Shown here piece after piece: positions 1,758 to 7,027 of a stretch of 17,177 nt of DNA (position 1 is its first letter; every line of letters starts with the position of its first letter). The stretch covers positions 1-17,177 of IMG/VR virus record IMGVR_UViG_2671181056_000008; one strand, written 5' to 3'. Under the pieces are notes generated by a model that was not told the DNA's origin, made no database searches, and saw only the letters and a list, made by a program, of their open reading frames with translations. Both the position numbers and the translations under genes were made by a program. This DNA comes from a virus. Lineage: Duplodnaviria > Heunggongvirae > Uroviricota > Caudoviricetes.

Positions 1758-1843
1758 TACATGAAAGAAGCTCACTCAGTGCAACTGATCGGTACATAGC
1801 ACCAGACAAAGGAACGTTATTTTCTCGAACAAGAAAAGGTAGA

Positions 1844-1877
1844 AAACAAATTGTTTAAGGCCACAACTAGTGGCCTT
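1844..1877. repeat. 13-bp palindrome AAACAAATTGTTT followed by GC hairpin, copy 1 of a composite element
   Basis: Perfect palindrome 1844-1856; hairpin aaggccac (1857-1864) / gtggcctt (1870-1877), 5-nt loop. Near-identical element at 6964-6997. Confidence 0.6.
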
Positions 1878-1893
1878 AATGGAGAAGGGATGC

Positions 1894-2457
1894 TTATTGG
1901 CTATGGCTAAAAATCAAATGAGACACTTCATTTGGTTGTAGCTCGTCAAGATCCGGGGCCACAAAACCTTTTCCGAAAGACTTCACAAGTGATTCACCAG
2001 CCGCATCATTGTCACCTATTACGCGAAAGTCATACGGCAGCATTGCCAGTTGACGACGTAATCCTGCTGAGAAAGTCGAACCTAACAGCGCCCACGAATT
2101 TCCGCCCGCGTTGTGCACTGCTGCACTTTTAAAAATCGACTCAGTTATCCATATCGGTCCATCTTTTAAAGGAAGATAGGTTCCCCATAGTAGCTGTCTG
2201 CCGTGCGCTCGTGTGAAATACCGGGCCATCTTCGGATTGCTATGCTGCTTAGGAGCGCCTGGTCTGTATGTCTGATACCCGGCCAACATCCCATCAAACC
2301 TGTATAGAGGGAATGTAACAACTCCTTCGCTTTCATCGATCCACTGTCTATATGGATGCACATCATAGCGGTAGTTACGAGTTAGCAAATGAGCTTCCAG
2401 CTTTCCAAATTTAGTCATAACTTCGCATCCCTCATAACACTTCCCATTTATCACCAT
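1894..2457 (-). CDS. small Toprim-domain protein (DnaG-type motifs)
   Basis: C-terminal half aligns by eye to DnaG Toprim: ITES (catalytic Glu), LGST, VIGDNDAAGE (DxD). Alternative start at 2418 (MTKFGK) avoids the 26-nt overlap with the upstream gene. Confidence 0.6.
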   Translation of the reverse strand: MVINGKCYEGCEVMTKFGKLEAHLLTRNYRYDVHPYRQWIDESEGVVTFPLYRFDGMLAGYQTYRPGAPKQHSNPKMARYFTRAHGRQLLWGTYLPLKDGPIWITESIFKSAAVHNAGGNSWALLGSTFSAGLRRQLAMLPYDFRVIGDNDAAGESLVKSFGKGFVAPDLDELQPNEVSHLIFSHSQ

Positions 2458-3286
2458 ATTTCTCCATAGCTCTTAGCCAATAAACATGGCCACTAGGCAT
2501 AGTGATGTGAGGCTCGCCAAACTCTTCTCCATGTACATCAAAGATGTCCCCAACAGAAAATTGGGGGATTTCTGTTCCGTTTTCACCTATATGTGTAATT
2601 CGTATACGTTTCGGTTGGGATTGTCCACCTTTGAGCGAGTTGTTCACTGCTCTGGCAATTTTCTCCCGCAATTGCTGCGTTCCGTGATACGTAACCGCAA
2701 TATCCCGCAACTCATTCACTAGTTCTCGAATTTGGTGATCTTTAAGCTCATTATTTGGGTGATTGGTAACAACTCTGGTTAATTCCCCATTGTCTTTTGC
2801 TCTTACGTATGCAGCTCTTGTGCATTCGCCCCATGTATTACCGCCTACATTAACTTCGTAGATTAGGCTGGACTTATCTGTCAATTCGGAACAAATACGG
2901 GCCGTGGTCTGGCAACTAGAGCATTCGCAGTTATCGCGGAAACCGTGGTCTACTGGCTTCGGTTTAACATCATCAACTTTTTCTACCCTATTGGAATTTA
3001 AATACTTCGAAGCCTTGCTATGCCAATCGCTGGTTTTAGGATCTTGTCCATCCATCAAACGCCAGGCTTCAGCTATTAACTCATAACTAGTGACTGTAGC
3101 TTCCTGCGCATCACCAATAAGTCGTGTAATCTCTCTTTCAAGCCGACCGCCTAACTCCGTTTTAGTGCAATGTTCTGACCAATCGCCAGTCTCAAGAAGC
3201 GCGAGAATGCTTAAAATATCGTCCAATAGAACGGTAGTATTATCGACTTCCTTCTGAAACTCACCGGCTACTGATTTATGCATCAT
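2432..3286 (-). CDS. hypothetical protein, 284 aa, with CxCxxC cysteine cluster
   Basis: Long ORF; start ATG overlaps the upstream stop (ATGA); no family recognised. Confidence 0.6.
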   Translation of the reverse strand: MMHKSVAGEFQKEVDNTTVLLDDILSILALLETGDWSEHCTKTELGGRLEREITRLIGDAQEATVTSYELIAEAWRLMDGQDPKTSDWHSKASKYLNSNRVEKVDDVKPKPVDHGFRDNCECSSCQTTARICSELTDKSSLIYEVNVGGNTWGECTRAAYVRAKDNGELTRVVTNHPNNELKDHQIRELVNELRDIAVTYHGTQQLREKIARAVNNSLKGGQSQPKRIRITHIGENGTEIPQFSVGDIFDVHGEEFGEPHITMPSGHVYWLRAMEKYGDKWEVL

Positions 3287-3504
3287 TCGTCATCCTCATC
3301 CGAGTCATCCTCATCACAGGATGAGAGTAGTGGGTTAGTCATTCGCCCTACTTGAGTGGCGTAGCAACGCCGACAGAGATTGCGCAGCACACTGTATATT
3401 TCGAACATCTCGGTTCGTTCATCGCCAACATCAAGCTCAGATGCTATAGCGTGGCATTCAGTCGCGAGAGCCGATATTTTCTGAAATAACTCTGCTTTAT
3501 TCAC
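3283..3504 (-). CDS. hypothetical small protein, 73 aa, acidic C-terminus (CDEDDSDEDDE)
   Basis: GTG start at 3504 preceded by AGGAG with 7-nt spacer; overlaps the DUF551-like gene stop. The 93-aa ORF in the track has no ribosome-binding site at its ATG. Confidence 0.35.
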   Translation of the reverse strand: MNKAELFQKISALATECHAIASELDVGDERTEMFEIYSVLRNLCRRCYATQVGRMTNPLLSSCDEDDSDEDDE

Positions 3505-4072
3505 TCTTCGACTCCTGCGGAGGTTCTGGTAGCGGCATCCAGTGAGTTGCTTGCTCAATACCATTACCCGGCTTAATCGTTACATCTCCGCGCCGAAAGG
3601 TGATTCCGGTATAGCGTGCGGAGCATATTAGCGGTTCAACCAGAGAGCTATCGAAATTCACCGAAATAAGCACGTTCTGGCCCTTTTCAGGCATTCGCTC
3701 ACTACAGCTTATCCAACCATCCGGAGTTACCGGATGGGGTCCAGCGAACTCGGGAATGTCAGGACCTTTTCTGATAGCTTTAGCCAGATCCAGCGGGTCA
3801 TCGTAAAGCCAGTCGCCAGTTTGTGGGTGATTTGCTTCTGCAAGCTGCGCAGCCCATTCAAGACCATCTTTTTGACCTTGGAGATAATCAAGCGGCAACT
3901 CTTCATGATTACTTGCAGGTTCTGCACTATCAGCTTCGCGCCGCTTCTGTAGCTCTGCTGCCATCGCTCTCACGACTTCAACTGGTGCCCTTGCAGCAAA
4001 CTCTATGTTGGTGATCAGCTCATTAAGATATTGCTCGCCTGGATACTGTTTCTTATCGGTTATAGTGGTCAT
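3497..4072 (-). CDS. DUF551-like phage protein
   Basis: 191 aa from ATG at 4072 (GGAGAGTGAT upstream); C-terminal segment with THWMPLPEPP resembles the DUF551 signature as recalled. Confidence 0.6.
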   Translation of the reverse strand: MTTITDKKQYPGEQYLNELITNIEFAARAPVEVVRAMAAELQKRREADSAEPASNHEELPLDYLQGQKDGLEWAAQLAEANHPQTGDWLYDDPLDLAKAIRKGPDIPEFAGPHPVTPDGWISCSERMPEKGQNVLISVNFDSSLVEPLICSARYTGITFRRGDVTIKPGNGIEQATHWMPLPEPPQESKSE

Positions 4073-4073
4073 A

Positions 4074-4460
4074 TCACTCTCCTTTTCCCTGAAGCATAGC
4101 AGCGCGGCAGGCATTCCAGCCTCTCACCTCTGCAATAGCGGCAACAGCATCAACCGCGTACATGCTAAGAGGATTAGGCATTGGTTTTTCTTCCGGTACT
4201 ACTGGAACGGGTGGAGCGGCGTAGACCTCAATAATTCCATTATCAATAGGCCATTCTCCATCCTTGAGGTAGTCACTTGTGCCGTCAACTTGCTGTTCTG
4301 CAATGTGGAATGCACCTATTGGTTTTGCTTCCAGCGATGCCAGAGCAATTCGTGCCAGTTCTTCCGCTTCTTCTGCTGGCAGTACAACGTTGCTACCAGG
4401 TCCGTATGTTTCGCGCCACTGTTTGATTGTCAGTAGTCGCTCTTTGGTAATAGTGGTCAT
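4074..4460 (-). CDS. hypothetical protein, 128 aa
   Basis: ATG at 4460 preceded by AAGGAG; C-terminus ends KGE immediately before the next gene's start. Confidence 0.6.
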   Translation of the reverse strand: MTTITKERLLTIKQWRETYGPGSNVVLPAEEAEELARIALASLEAKPIGAFHIAEQQVDGTSDYLKDGEWPIDNGIIEVYAAPPVPVVPEEKPMPNPLSMYAVDAVAAIAEVRGWNACRAAMLQGKGE

Positions 4461-4470
4461 GTGTTACTCC

Positions 4471-4734
4471 TTAACCCGCAGTGCTTTCAACTGATGAGGG
4501 GAACAAAATCCTTTCATCAAATCCGGCATTCATATCATGGACAGCAACACACCAATCCATCGACGAACGATTATCAAGAGCCTCCATGATTTCATCCATG
4601 CGGCGCAGGTCATACAGGTAAATGCTTTTATCGCCAATGGTGTAAAAACCAATTTTTTTCGGTGATGGGCAGCGATCAAGAACGTCCTGTAATTCGTTCA
4701 ACCATGCCCGTTCTTTTTTTGTTAAAGTTGCCAT
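4471..4734 (-). CDS. hypothetical protein, 87 aa
   Basis: ATG at 4734 (MATLTKKERAW) one nt after the upstream stop, preceded by GGAGAGTGAT. Confidence 0.55.
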   Translation of the reverse strand: MATLTKKERAWLNELQDVLDRCPSPKKIGFYTIGDKSIYLYDLRRMDEIMEALDNRSSMDWCVAVHDMNAGFDERILFPSSVESTAG

Positions 4735-4735
4735 A

Positions 4736-5257
4736 TCACTCTCCTTTGATGCGAATGCCTGCTGCAATGCTGTTTATGATGCTGTCAGTGCATGGAGTAG
4801 AAAGCTGGGCATCTCCAGCAATTTTCATGACCTCAACATCCGCATATCGAATACCGAGGTGTATCAGACCGGCTATACCTGACTTAAGTCGAACATTTTC
4901 CATAAACAGATCTTTTTCCCGCTGTTTAGCGGCTTCCAACTCCATCGACAATTTTTCCAACTGCTCTTTATGCTTCTTGTATTCCTGATACGCGTGCCAA
5001 GACTGACCTTTGCGCACACTATCAGTGATATCAGCAACCTGCTCCGGTGTTAGCGTGGTCAGTGGCTGTGCTGGAAAAATCATCACTTTCCCGGCATCCC
5101 AATCAAAACCCGCCTGAATTGACTGAACCTCAACTGATGGTGTTGAACCGATGCGACCAGGCGAATGAACAACGATCGTTACATCCATATCGCGACGATG
5201 GCTGTGGTTGTTGGACAAAATACGATTCACCAACTCAGAAAATTTGGAAAATTTCAT
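4736..5257 (-). CDS. hypothetical protein with Ea22-like C-terminus (AAGIRIKGE)
   Basis: 173 aa from ATG at 5257 (AAGAGGGA upstream, ATGA overlap with the upstream stop); last 9 residues identical to those of the 5579..6109 product. Confidence 0.6.
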
Positions 5258-5577
5258 GCTGATCCCTCTTTCTCTCCCCGGATAATTCTGTTGCACACAT
5301 CCACACACTCGTCGCAGATGAAAACGGCGTCCCCAGCAATTAACTTTTTGACGGCGTACTGGGATTTGTTGCAGAAGCTGCAACAAAGTGTTCGCCTGAC
5401 TGATAAGGATGGAGCGCCAGATGTCAGCCGCTCCATATCGTTCTTGCGACGCAATATCACACGGCTGAACTCAACCAGTTTCTCCGGGGATATCTCCTCC
5501 TCCGTAGCAAGCGCCTCTAATCGTTCGAGTATGTGGAAGGCTTTTTTCTGGGTAATTGCAGAATGCGATGTGGTCAT
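5254..5577 (-). CDS. small protein with C-terminal ClpX-type C4 zinc-binding domain
   Basis: 107 aa; [38 protein letters not shown] closely matches the ClpX N-terminal zinc-binding domain (CSFCGKSQ...RKLIAG...YICDECVDLCNDIIREE) with all four Cys; ATG at 5577 behind GGAGAGTGAG. Confidence 0.75.
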
Positions 5578-5578
5578 C

Positions 5579-6109
5579 TCACTCTCCTTTGATGCGAATG
5601 CCAGCGGCGCGGGAATCATTCCATCGCTTTACTTCTTCACGAATTACGTCAATGCATTCTTTCGAATCCATTAGGTAATCTTCATCAAAAAGACGTTCCT
5701 GTTCGTTTTCTATCGCAACAATGATTGCTTCAACTAACTTTTGTGCCTGAGAATCACTTTCTAACTCTGCTATGCGCTTACTTCCATCCGAGATAACGCC
5801 CTCGTAATACTCACGCTGCTCGTTGAGTTTTGATTTTGCCAACTCCAGTTGTTTTGTTAGTTCCGCAATACGGCAAACATCGTTGATACGCGTTTCCTCT
5901 AATGCGTTGATCTCATCCAGTAGTGCCAGCACGGTTTCTGGTCCGGCCAGAAATTTGAAGGCGTTGAGGGCATCAATATCAACACCGCTATCTTTAAGTT
6001 CCTGTTCACTTAACAAGTCATCATCAGCTGGCAACATTAACAGGCGTTCCATTGCTGGAATTGCACGTTCCGCCACCTCACGCAGTGCCTGGTAATTAAT
6101 TTCGCTCAC
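5579..6109 (-). CDS. Ead/Ea22-like family protein
   Basis: 176 aa; GTG start at 6109 behind GGAGG; MSEIN N-terminus, [27 protein letters not shown] block and AGIRIKGE C-terminus match lambda Ea22-like proteins as recalled (unverified). Confidence 0.65.
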
Positions 6110-6350
6110 TGGCTGCCTCCTGCTTTTCTGCCTTCAACACCATGCGAGAACCATCATCCAGCTCCCACACTATCTCACCACCTTCAGCCATGACCAGTTG
6201 CCACACCAATTGAGCAGCCTCATTGGTAACATCACGACCTGGATCATTGCCAACGCGCATACGTCCACCTTCAACATCGCGCATTTTTGCCAGCATGATA
6301 GTTTTTGATAGCGGTGAAAAACCAAGCTGTAGTCGTGCTGAATTACTCAC
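6096..6350 (-). CDS. hypothetical protein, 84 aa
   Basis: GTG start overlapping the upstream TGA (GTGA), preceded by GGAGG at 6-nt spacing. Confidence 0.5.
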   Translation of the reverse strand: MSNSARLQLGFSPLSKTIMLAKMRDVEGGRMRVGNDPGRDVTNEAAQLVWQLVMAEGGEIVWELDDGSRMVLKAEKQEAASERN

Positions 6351-6889
6351 TGGTTGCCTCCTTTGCGAAGCTGGGCAGCAAAGTCAACTAACCACTCAGT
6401 CATTTCAACCTTCCCTACCAGGTCTGAACCAGGGTGCATACAGCAATCACTCTGCGCCGCTTTGAAATCCTTATACTCATATTCTTGGGCCACCAGATTT
6501 TTTGCAGCTTCTATAGCAGCATCCACCCCCTGCGCACGTACTTCAGCCAGAAAAGCATCGGTGGCTGGAGTCTCCGTTAATTCGCTAACCCAATTATCTC
6601 CGTGTTCCTCGGCACACATCGCATCGAATGCTCGCTCAGATTCTTTCAGGGCTGCATTCTCCGCCGCTAATGCGTCTCTCTGCGCCCGCAACTTCTCAAT
6701 TTCGGCAGCCATGTAGTAACCAACCATAGCGAAGACGGCAAAAGAGTTGTCTGCCTCATCAGGCGACACTGAGGCCATTAGCAGACCATCGTAATAATCG
6801 TGACTCCCATTGGTGATCGCCACCTCATAGGAGTCGTGGTTCTCACGCTTGTGAATGAGAACTACGGGGTTTTCGATTTTGTTACTCAT
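6347..6889 (-). CDS. hypothetical protein, 180 aa
   Basis: ATG at 6889 preceded by AAGAGAAAAACAC, a leader shared with three other genes; first gene after the 6964-6997 element. Confidence 0.6.
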   Translation of the reverse strand: MSNKIENPVVLIHKRENHDSYEVAITNGSHDYYDGLLMASVSPDEADNSFAVFAMVGYYMAAEIEKLRAQRDALAAENAALKESERAFDAMCAEEHGDNWVSELTETPATDAFLAEVRAQGVDAAIEAAKNLVAQEYEYKDFKAAQSDCCMHPGSDLVGKVEMTEWLVDFAAQLRKGGNQ

Positions 6890-6963
6890 GTGTTTTTCTC
6901 TTCTTTGCTGTTACATAAGCACTACCAAGTGCTGGTTTATTTTCACAAATAAGAAAATGTAGA

Positions 6964-6997
6964 AAACAATTTATTTAAGGCCACAACTTATGGCCTT
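6964..6997. repeat. composite element copy 2: degenerate palindrome AAACAATTTATTT plus GC hairpin
   Basis: Hairpin aaggcca (6977-6983) / tggcctt (6991-6997), 7-nt loop; about 85 percent identical to 1841-1880 over roughly 45 bp. Confidence 0.6.
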
Positions 6998-7027
6998 TAT
7001 TTATTCATGCCGAAGGATTTGTAGCGT

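Follow-up and report, generated by a model that had tools for sequence, protein, structure and literature searches.

The analysed window, a stretch of 17,177 nucleotides, is a lambdoid "ea/exo-xis" accessory-gene array within an SSU5-like phage-plasmid of the p09EL50 type. Along the minus strand, the array runs from an Ea22-like gene through junction J3 to a zinc-finger gene, an ATGA overlap (5254-5257), a 173-aa gene, junction J2 and an 87-aa gene, followed by a differing junction with a 10-nt spacer (4461-4470), ORF128, junction J1 and a DUF551 gene (Table 1). The Ea22-like product matches PF13935 from residue 2 (E 7.6e-24). ORF128, whose C-terminal residues are ...CRAAMLQGKGE-stop, is annotated as a partial pseudogene in the RefSeq record of p09EL50. 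No promoter-like site was found on the minus strand inside the array, which fits a single polycistronic message.

Table 1. Genes and junctions of the array, with coordinates in the window
Feature	Coordinates	Strand	Content or basis of assignment
DUF551 gene, 191 aa; downstream partner at J1	3497-4072	minus	Domain match
Junction J1	4070-4134	minus	Exact 16-mer AAAGGAGAGTGATATG (4070-4085) after a diverged, homeologous tail (...EVRGWNACRAAMLQGKGE-stop)
ORF128, intact chimeric ORF; upstream partner at J1	4074-4460	minus	N-terminus MTTITKERL..., C-terminus ...WNACRAAMLQGKGE-stop
Diverged junction relative	4446-4477	minus	87-aa gene stop, GGAGTAACAC, ORF128 ATG; repeat-finder family D4, 75%
87-aa gene; downstream partner at J2	4471-4734	minus	Widely travelled cassette: 80 loci, 10 upstream families
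Junction J2	4732-4765	minus	GCAGCAGGCATTCGCATCAAAGGAGAGTGATATG: tail AAGIRIKGE and stop of 173-aa gene, Shine-Dalgarno, 87-aa gene ATG
Chimeric 173-aa gene; upstream partner at J2	4736-5257	minus	Two-part family composition
ClpX C4-type zinc-finger protein gene, 107 aa; downstream partner at J3	5254-5577	minus	Domain match
Junction J3	5575-5611	minus	37-mer CGCGCCGCTGGCATTCGCATCAAAGGAGAGTGAGATG: last 11 Ea22-like codons, AAGGAG, one spacer base, zinc-finger ATG
Ead/Ea22-like gene, 176 aa, GTG start 6109	5579-6109	minus	PF13935 N-terminal domain, variable C-terminal part, GIRIKGE tail
Second boundary class	6076-6124	minus	AGGAGGCAGCCAGTGAGCGAAATTAATTACCAGGCACTGCGTGA

Anatomy of the repeated junctions

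All three junctions read AAAGGAGAGTGA(T/G)ATG on the minus strand (4070-4085, 4732-4747 and 5575-5590). The pattern AAAGGAGAGTGANATG has exactly three matches in the window, all on that strand, and no further copy was found there even at two mismatches. Shuffled sequences give a chance expectation of 0.05, and none of 200 shuffles reached three copies; an independent repeat finder ranked these three copies first among its direct-repeat families (D1). The first-pass annotation had described three consecutive near-identical junctions. The three copies are real but not consecutive, with two other junction types lying between them.

Alignment confirmed the earlier observation that 4735-4759 and 5578-5602 are identical at 24 of 25 bases and give their proteins the same C-terminus, the common peptide being AAGIRIKGE; at J3, the 11 final codons of the Ea22-like gene correspond to 10 residues and the stop. 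The two carriers had been described as otherwise unrelated proteins sharing a tail. The tail is indeed identical, but the 173-aa protein proved to carry an Ea22-type C-terminal domain as well. Its residues 1 to ~117 belong to a family usually ending in ...QLRKGGxQ-stop, and residues 109-173 are near-identical to the end of an Ea22-like variant known from elsewhere, C-terminal domain and tail included; thus, both identical-tail genes carry an Ea22-type 3' end. Neither the 173-aa protein nor the ORF128 product has PF13935, the former sharing the C-terminal domain and tail and the latter the tail alone.

J1 and J3 are identical at 47 of 76 positions and were also recovered by the repeat finder (family D3, 70 nt at 70%). 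Their upstream proteins have in common a longer diverged peptide, EV(R/K)xWNxxRAA...KGE. The likeness of the diverged relative at 4446-4477 to J1 lies mainly in the Shine-Dalgarno sequence and the common first codons ATGACCACTAT(T/A)ACC, which encode the recurrent N-terminal motif MTTIT. The second boundary class encodes elsewhere ...QLRKGG(S/N)Q-stop overlapping the GTG start of ea22-like genes, and is also found between hkaH and hkaG of HK620. In the window, its upstream DUF7446 gene uses another frame, with the stop TAA at 6096-6098.

The stop-start arrangement at the repeated junctions is TGA-N-ATG, with AAGGAG placed 6-7 nt before the ATG and inside the upstream ORF. These are the sequence features of translationally coupled gene pairs, in which the Shine-Dalgarno sequence precedes the start by 5-9 nt and the stop falls no more than a few bases from it, and coupling is predicted here from them. 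The other junctions of the array have quite different sequences (the ATGA overlap; GGAGTAACACATG). An RNA element was considered and rejected: no Rfam family is present in the window, the three junction contexts have no shared structure, and they fold no better than shuffled sequences (z -0.1 to -1.7).

Spread, partner combinations and exchange points

The 37-mer of J3 is present in 2,983 of 5,426 complete E. coli genomes, with up to 11 linker copies per genome and ~6,200 copies overall, and in 372 phage records, mainly of Stx and lambdoid phages. An identical 37-mer joins hkaG to hkaF in HK620, and phage lambda ea22 has the same 3' end. The linker, carried by over half of the complete E. coli genomes and by phage-plasmids as well, thus marks a very active shuffling route for small accessory genes, connecting Stx phages, other lambdoid prophages and plasmid-prophages. 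A scan of species-representative genomes (39 matches) was discarded as a measure of taxonomic spread; its matches are mostly lambda DNA contaminating unrelated assemblies, in ~48.5 kb contigs or low-coverage ~1 kb contigs.

In IMG/VR phage contigs, 127 junction instances join upstream 3' ends of 18 families to downstream 5' ends of 19 families, giving 59 combinations, and 13 of the 18 upstream families have at least two downstream partners. At 80 loci encoding the 87-aa protein (98-100% identical), picked by this downstream protein alone and without reference to the junction, the gene is preceded by 10 upstream families with five tail types, always via ...TGA(T/G)ATG. The 173-aa family in turn has several downstream partners, and the zinc-finger gene is preceded in other phages by either the GIRIKGE junction or another one. 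Three different upstream genes precede the DUF551 gene start in L044, L046 and L050, and the product expected from a J3 by J2 crossover, in which the Ea22 tail of the window is followed by the 87-aa gene, is present in L269, L290 and L307. Among representative tail-bearing upstream proteins, nine of ten have the PF13935 N-terminal domain followed by unrelated C-terminal domains. Therefore, different genes do sit between identical junctions in related elements. The first-pass annotation had named two findings as counting against module exchange, its absence at these junctions and a repeat confined to this genome; instead, the genes beside these junctions differ between related elements, and the repeat recurs in E. 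coli genomes, phage records, HK620 and lambda.

Upstream and downstream families share 1.47 bits of mutual information (shuffle mean 1.12; entropies ~3.3-3.5 bits), a value that, like the other association statistics, is inflated by the relatedness of the phages sampled. Of the 0.93 bits at the T/G position that separates TGA from ATG, 0.70 are shared with the downstream family and only 0.22 with the upstream one (shuffle mean 0.12). The left-edge 6 nt, in turn, have 2.52 of their 3.10 bits in common with the upstream family. The flanking variants thus switch linkage across the core, which places exchange points inside the invariant core. Uninterrupted core identity in 2,801 pairs differing on both sides has a median of 28 nt; 93% of the pairs reach 23 nt or more, and 24% reach 31 nt or more. 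Most junction instances come from exact-pattern scans, so core conservation in those sets holds by construction; the bias-free sets are the protein-anchored ones and a scan that used only the left half as its anchor. The shortest segment needed for pairing is reported as 23-27 bp with Red-beta and 31-34 bp with RecA (PMC3945230), and the median core identity is about the minimum reported for Red-beta recombination.

In three near-identical sibling phage-plasmids, homology to the window is lost within J2 (4744/4754) and at the left edge of J3 (5611); in one of these comparisons, with sibling plasmid L427, homology stops exactly at 5611. Other array breakpoints lie within genes, at 4360 (ORF128), 5766, 5839 and 5913, and a 6-nt microhomology deletion is present in array genes. 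The many intragenic breakpoints indicate that the linker is not the sole exchange route.

A proposed boundary linker and its alternatives

We propose, with a probability of roughly 0.8, that the repeats represent a conserved gene-boundary (linker) cassette, roughly 25-37 bases long, of the lambdoid early-left accessory (ea / exo-xis) region, exchanged by homologous recombination. A single stretch, (CGCGCCGCT)GGCATTCGCATCAAAGGAGAGTGA-N-ATG, does three jobs: it codes for the last residues of the upstream gene (..AAGIRIKGE) and its stop, supplies AAGGAG as a strong Shine-Dalgarno sequence at 6-7 nt from the ATG, and sets the next start codon one base past the stop, so that the genes of a polycistronic message could be translated one after another. 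Since the same 21-40 nt occur in many otherwise unrelated genes, general homologous recombination could cross over inside them, probably by means of phage Rad52-type recombinases (Red-beta, RecT, Erf) or host RecA. Such a crossover would exchange all that lies on one side while preserving the reading frame and the translation signals. In the Ead/Ea22 family, of which GIRIKGE-stop is the canonical 3' end, the tail may also provide the right-hand homology arm by which the hypervariable C-terminal domain is swapped. The suggestion of the first-pass annotation that the repeats are recombination joints for module swapping is supported by the partner combinations, the linkage switch and the sibling breakpoints, from which we infer that the joints were generated by homologous recombination at the linker rather than by selection on the products of other events.

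The peptide itself might instead be what is preserved. The ..AAGIRIKGE tail would then be kept for a function common to all carriers, which might be that of a docking motif, degradation signal or oligomerisation cap, and DNA identity and exchange would be secondary. This is in line with use of the KGE frame in 159 of 161 non-redundant copies, with the longer diverged peptide common to the J1 and J3 proteins, and with the K/R-G-E ending of all studied Ea22 proteins, the significance of which its authors called unknown (PMC7093339). However, KGE is the exact reading of the Shine-Dalgarno sequence AAAGGAGAG, and unrelated carriers use identical codons (GGC ATT CGC ATC AAA GGA GAG), which argues for one shared DNA segment and not for peptide convergence. 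Radical substitutions also occur (G to D, G to N, G to V, R to C, R to G), and the same genes bear quite different tails as well, e.g. KEN-stop and FTKEGAAR-stop. One locus, L046, keeps the junction DNA and reads it in another frame (...ITHQRRVI-stop), and a frame other than that used elsewhere likewise serves for the second boundary class in the window. Moreover, the C-terminal fold of lambda Ea22 ends at helix alpha2, and the helix extension past the domain in the AlphaFold model was judged implausible (PMC10834534). A peptide function is therefore unlikely to account for the repeat, and the tail peptide is probably mostly a passenger of the linker.

Illegitimate, non-homologous joins could in principle form anywhere, with selection keeping intact genes, and the likeness of the junctions would then reflect only that no coupled pair can do without stop, Shine-Dalgarno sequence and start. 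The prevailing general view of phage mosaicism takes this form (PMC3029335, PMC2327257), and the intragenic breakpoints and the 6-nt microhomology deletion in array genes agree with it. Nevertheless, we regard it as a distinctly improbable source of these junctions: translation signals constrain ~12-16 nt, yet identity reaches 21-40 nt and includes wobble positions of codons outside the Shine-Dalgarno sequence (GGC ATT CGC ATC), and the linkage of flanking variants switches across the core. The different sequences at the other array junctions indicate that function does not force the linker sequence. Finally, it is very improbable that the copies are remnants of a local tandem duplication of one gene, with the upstream genes as diverged paralogues: the three copies do lie within 1.5 kb on one strand, and the 173-aa and Ea22-like genes both have Ea22-type 3' ends, but the tail alone is common to the three upstream proteins, and each gene has its closer relatives in other phages, beside different neighbours, rather than in the window, so that protein comparisons and partner combinations contradict local paralogy.

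Relation to known systems

The gene at 5579-6109 is a member of the Ead/Ea22 family (PF13935), and lambda Ea22 likewise ends in GIRIKGE. Ea22 proteins have unique C-terminal domains and a common K/R-G-E ("+GE") end (Dydecka et al. 2020, PMC7093339; Donaldson lab 2024, PMC10834534). The end is left unexplained in that literature, whereas here it reads as the Shine-Dalgarno sequence of the gene that follows, inside a proposed recombination linker, a small gain that the junction sequences offer. In addition, two genes of the window, the 173-aa gene and ORF128, bear the tail outside the family as defined by its domain. Within the literature consulted, no relevant mention of IRIKGE or of the junction sequence was found. 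The "+GE" reading matters when Ea22 truncations are designed or when the motif is taken for a protein signal.

Exchange at short or diverged homology is also the basis of the homeologous "shoulders" of Rad52-type mosaicism (Martinsohn 2008, PMC2327257; De Paepe 2014, PMC3945230). The J1/J3 pair forms such a shoulder at 62-70% identity, and the core length matches the minimal pairing segment of Red-beta. Those studies concern homology of at least 100 bp at 64-90% identity, whereas the block here is a perfect 21-40 bp.

Like integron cassettes, the array is a promoterless set of accessory genes under one upstream promoter, reshuffled at a short repeat between genes. Unlike attC, the site is coding and has neither an imperfect palindrome or hairpin nor a dedicated integrase, and general or phage homologous recombination would serve. 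An attC-like or other palindromic site was rejected, there being no inverted repeat at the junctions; a hairpin-forming inverted repeat and an adjacent IntI are absent from the junctions and neighbourhood, and no integrase is annotated in the 25-kb neighbourhood. It can be speculated, as a rather unlikely extension of the linker reading, that the linker is a selected cassette-exchange site working without a dedicated recombinase, which would make the Ea22/ea region an integron-like hot spot in prophages and phage-plasmids, and that GIRIKGE is possibly a functional common module, e.g. a docking or turnover signal plugging newly captured C-terminal domains into one host pathway. Also rejected was a pairing like that of toxin and immunity genes, in which the variable C-terminal domain of Ea22 would belong with the gene that follows, since partners are almost freely combined and the domain lacks the tight covariation with the downstream gene expected of polymorphic toxins.

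Boundary sequences of lambdoid phages were reportedly described for HK620 by Clark, Inwood, Cloutier and Dhillon in 2001 (J Mol Biol 311:657), and linkers of modular evolution are said to go back to Susskind and Botstein in 1978. It was for the HK620 genome that conserved boundary sequences were proposed (Clark 2001, as cited in PMC3029335 and PMC2327257), and we connect our repeat to that proposal through these secondary citations and the HK620 sequence. As described there, those sequences resemble the present linker in being short and conserved, in lying at an early-operon boundary between non-homologous modules, and in having been proposed as a focus of homologous recombination. Our junctions are conserved boundaries with non-homologous flanks, have coincident breakpoints (some others being intragenic) and lie in the early-left region, including that of HK620. 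The recombination-joint proposal is thus already known as the boundary-sequence idea of Clark et al. 2001, in the form in which it is cited, and the repeat is real but ordinary. The linker offers a clean, quantifiable case of phage mosaicism through short conserved linkers and not random illegitimate joins, a matter of debate ever since the modular theory was put forward for phages. The copy analysed here resides in an SSU5-like phage-plasmid and theirs in an integrated lambdoid prophage; otherwise, as far as the secondary citations describe them, nothing essential differs.

Repeated junctions in a lambdoid small-gene array

The window matches two plasmid-prophages of ~109 kb at 99.8-100% identity, namely E. 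coli O104:H4 p09EL50 (NC_018651.1) and CP054387.1, a record titled 'Escherichia phage CMS-2020a'. Its small-gene array is typical of the lambdoid ea / exo-xis region and is flanked by backbone genes (including apbC, S24 peptidase, toprim protein, DUF4942, RNase HI, methyltransferase, exonuclease); all genes at ~2430-6890 lie on the minus strand. Array ORFs other than those marked Pfam in the table had no family in the Pfam search. Mosaicism of the array is extreme: of 5,426 complete E. coli genomes, 3,372 contain pieces of 3400-6400, and only two contain more than 80% of it.

Features of the array and the repeats around it (window positions)
Feature	Position	Strand	Source
64-nt direct repeat, first copy	1817-1880		
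DUF551	3497-4072	-	Pfam
Junction copy J1	4070-4085	-	
ORF128	4074-4460	-	
Spacer junction of different sequence	4461-4470		
87-aa gene	4471-4734	-	
Junction copy J2	4732-4747	-	
173-aa gene	4736-5257	-	
ATGA overlap	5254-5257		
zf-C4_ClpX (zinc-finger gene)	5254-5577	-	Pfam
Junction copy J3	5575-5590	-	
Ead_Ea22 (Ea22-like gene)	5579-6109	-	Pfam
Second boundary class	6076-6124		
DUF7446	6096-6350	-	Pfam
64-nt direct repeat, second copy	6937-7000		

The pattern AAAGGAGAGTGA(T/G)ATG occurs three times, against a chance expectation of 0.05 from shuffles; no further copy was found in the window, even with two mismatches. At all three junctions AAA GGA GAG TGA closes the upstream ORF with K-G-E-stop, AAGGAG is placed 6-7 nt ahead of the next ATG, and a single base separates stop and start. 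The two long copies are GCAGCAGGCATTCGCATCAAAGGAGAGTGATATG and GCCGCTGGCATTCGCATCAAAGGAGAGTGAGATG, and therefore AAGIRIKGE ends both upstream proteins; positions 4735-4759 and 5578-5602 are 24/25 identical, as the first-pass annotation had stated. The three copies formed the top direct-repeat family in an independent repeat search, and J1 and J3 are related over ~70 nt at 70% (47/76 in a separate comparison). The repeated junction is thus confirmed, although the three copies are not consecutive as originally described, since the ATGA overlap and the different spacer junction intervene. No Rfam-type RNA family and no structure common to the junctions is present.

Other features of the array were also recorded. 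The 64-nt repeat (86% identical, just two copies in the 25 kb examined) brackets the toprim gene and the entire array, carries a terminator-like hairpin (AAGGCCAC...GTGGCCTT) in each copy, and may represent either a regulatory element repeated in the backbone or a marker of the limits of the variable block. Host-like housekeeping genes, apbC/mrp (iron-sulfur cluster carrier) and, just beyond the window, full-length metG (methionyl-tRNA synthetase), adjoin the array on the phage-plasmid (window 194-1294; locus L001 5604-7637). ORF128 is intact but chimeric: nothing in the sibling plasmid L427 matches its first ~33 codons (4361-4460; MTTITKERL...), and the remainder (4074-4360) has 95% identity with a 140-aa gene of that plasmid; the RefSeq annotation of p09EL50 covers only 4326-4460, as a partial pseudogene. 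For the Ea22-like gene RefSeq places the start at ATG 6052 (157 aa). GTG 6109 is more likely on sequence grounds, because PF13935 aligns from residue 2 onward in this longer form and the peptide there is the conserved family N-terminus.

The repeat is also found outside this genome. A search with the 37-mer of J3 (5575-5611) gave 6,203 sites, 389 of them on plasmids, spread over 2,983 of the 5,426 complete E. coli genomes, with at most 11 in any one genome. It also gave 372 phage records, most of which are Stx-converting or other lambdoid phages of Escherichia, Salmonella and Shigella. A species-representative scan (L192-L230) returned the junction in 39 genomes, most of them not enterobacteria (Streptococcus, Prevotella, Streptomyces, Shewanella, Pseudomonas and others). 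These non-enterobacterial matches lie on ~48.4-48.5 kb or low-coverage ~1 kb contigs, the lambda ea22 3' end was present on all three of the 48-kb contigs that were checked (L193, L199, L209), and the matches look like phage lambda DNA contaminating assemblies. The Xanthomonas phage record vB_XooS_NR08 (OQ055246.1, 98.8 kb), in which a gene annotated 'Ea22 protein' has a lambda-type junction (1867-1897, 100% over 31 nt), may result from chimeric assembly or contamination.

Exchange of partners around the junction

Two pattern scans of IMG/VR yielded 127 enteric-phage junction instances with sufficient flank. Clustering of 150 nt per side, tail excluded, gave 18 upstream and 19 downstream families in 59 distinct combinations, with at least two partners for thirteen upstream and ten downstream families; different genes do sit around identical junctions. 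As these sets are conditioned on the pattern, loci were also picked by protein alone. The 87-aa protein, 98-100% identical in 80 such loci, is preceded by 10 unrelated upstream families with five tail types (GIRIKGE, AAMLHGKGE, LRTKGE, NPYKEN and CRINKEN, each before the stop), and the junction into its gene reads ...TGATATG throughout, with TGAGATG once. The zinc-finger gene likewise follows either a GIRIKGE-type junction or a different one. When contexts were anchored solely on the left half (GCCGCTGGCATTCGCATC), 59 of 91 non-redundant ones continued as AAAGGAGAGTGA(T/G)ATG and the others were variants, e.g. AAAGGAGAGGAGCATG or AAAGGAGGTGAGTAAT.

In a set of 84 non-redundant junctions of the GIRIKGE type, the T/G base that separates TGA from ATG tracks the downstream family (e.g. 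13 T/0 G, 14 T/0 G, 14 G/3 T, 5 G/0 T) and is nearly independent of the upstream one (14/3, 5/5, 3/8, 7/4, 4/6); mutual information is 0.70 of 0.93 bits with the former and 0.22 with the latter (shuffle mean 0.12). The six left-edge bases show the opposite pattern, with 2.52 of 3.10 bits common with the upstream family. Linkage therefore switches within the invariant GGCATTCGCATCAAAGGAGAGTGA. In 2,801 pairs differing on both sides, uninterrupted core identity has a median of 28 nt, of which 21 nt are guaranteed by the search pattern, and reaches 23 nt or more in 93% of the pairs and 31 nt or more in 24%. Minimal efficient pairing segments quoted by De Paepe et al. are 23-27 bp for Red-beta and 31-34 bp for RecA (PMC3945230).

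Three related phage-plasmids (pOkiPb01698_2, Esc11 plasmid 2 and phage PhiR41_1) have backbones of 93-99.6% identity and different arrays. Their homology to the window breaks at 4744 or 4754 (within J2), 5611 (left edge of J3) and 6121 (second boundary), as well as inside genes at 4360, 5766, 5839 and 5913. Three loci (L269, L290, L307) carry the window's Ea22 tail directly ahead of the 87-aa gene, the expected product of a J3-J2 crossover.

The second boundary class (...CTTCGCAAAGGAGGCA(A/G)CCAGTGAGC...) is widely shared, occurs also at HK620 hkaH/hkaG, and usually encodes QLRKGG(S/N)Q before a stop, overlapping the GTG start of ea22-like genes; the DUF7446 gene of the window reads it in another frame, with its stop TAA at 6096-6098. 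Many of the genes downstream of the junctions have similar first residues, M-(T/A/S)-T-(I/L)-T-K/D-(E/K)..., encoded by ATGACCACTAT(T/A)ACC... (window 4058-4072, 4446-4460, 4720-4734; many loci). Homology therefore sometimes runs ~15-25 nt beyond the start codon, which may be a further, weaker boundary.

Source of the GIRIKGE tail

In HK620, hkaG (an EaD/Ea22-like gene) is joined to hkaF by the exact 37-mer. The product of lambda ea22 (29847-30395, complement) also ends in GIRIKGE, and its gene is followed by GAGATCGG, a decayed junction without start codon. The PF13935 N-terminal domain was found in 9 of 10 representative tail-bearing proteins, whose C-terminal domains are mutually unrelated; the remaining one is a weak Mom-like protein. 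PF13935 is absent from the 173-aa protein, in which residues 109-173 form a near-identical copy of the C-terminal domain plus tail of an Ea22-like variant (locus L011). The N-terminal 117-134 residues fall in a family whose members normally end ...QLRKGGxQ and stop; the protein is therefore a chimera. The identical tails of both window genes, judged by sequence comparison, thus trace to Ea22-type 3' ends. Outside their tails, the three upstream proteins are unrelated to one another.

The N-terminal family of the 173-aa protein is widespread (L365-L426), with numerous alternative C-terminal parts and tails (QLRKGGNQ, FTKEGAAR, PEPPQESKSE and others), so that intragenic domain swapping is as common here as whole-gene swapping. 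In another locus (L046, junction ~2970-2996), a lambda-type ea22 has lost 80 nt between two CGCATC motifs (6-nt microhomology), a deletion that joins the gene body out of frame to the junction; the new end is ...ITHQRRVI and its stop overlaps the DUF551 start (ATATGA).

Proposed recombination at the junction and known boundary sequences

The best-supported reading is that the junction is a common stop / ribosome-binding-site / start cassette that would double as a homology patch for general recombination; a crossover within it would exchange the genes downstream, or the C-terminal domain of Ea22, while preserving the reading frame and the translation signals. The common DNA, the combinatorial partners, the linkage switch across the core and the breakpoints in close relatives are observed, and they support the recombination joints proposed in the first-pass annotation. 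The recombinase involved is inferred, and so is the origin of the joints at the linker itself as opposed to later selection.

A function of the tail peptide itself would fit the use of the KGE frame in 159 of 161 copies, but KGE is simply the Shine-Dalgarno sequence read in frame, unrelated carriers have identical codon usage, and radical substitutions occur in the tail. Further against it, the L046 deletion retains the junction DNA while shifting the frame, the window uses another frame for the second boundary class, and the fold of the lambda Ea22 C-terminus ends with helix alpha2 (PMC10834534). Translation signals plus illegitimate recombination alone do not explain the 21-40 nt of identity, including wobble positions outside the Shine-Dalgarno, or the quite different sequences at neighbouring junctions of the same array.

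A literature text search found no relevant mention of IRIKGE or the junction sequence. The boundary-sequence idea reportedly dates back to Susskind and Botstein's linkers. According to PMC3029335 and PMC2327257, Clark et al. 2001 proposed, for HK620, that short conserved boundary sequences are homologous-recombination sites between lambdoid modules. For Ea22 proteins, the C-terminal portions have been reported as unique and the end as a common '+GE' whose significance is unknown (PMC7093339); the ea22 genes of Stx phages have been called mosaic (PMC10834534). Our finding is therefore an instance of a phenomenon already known, to which it makes two modest additions: the exchange points are mapped to a ~24-nt core, and the Ea22 +GE motif receives a simple explanation.
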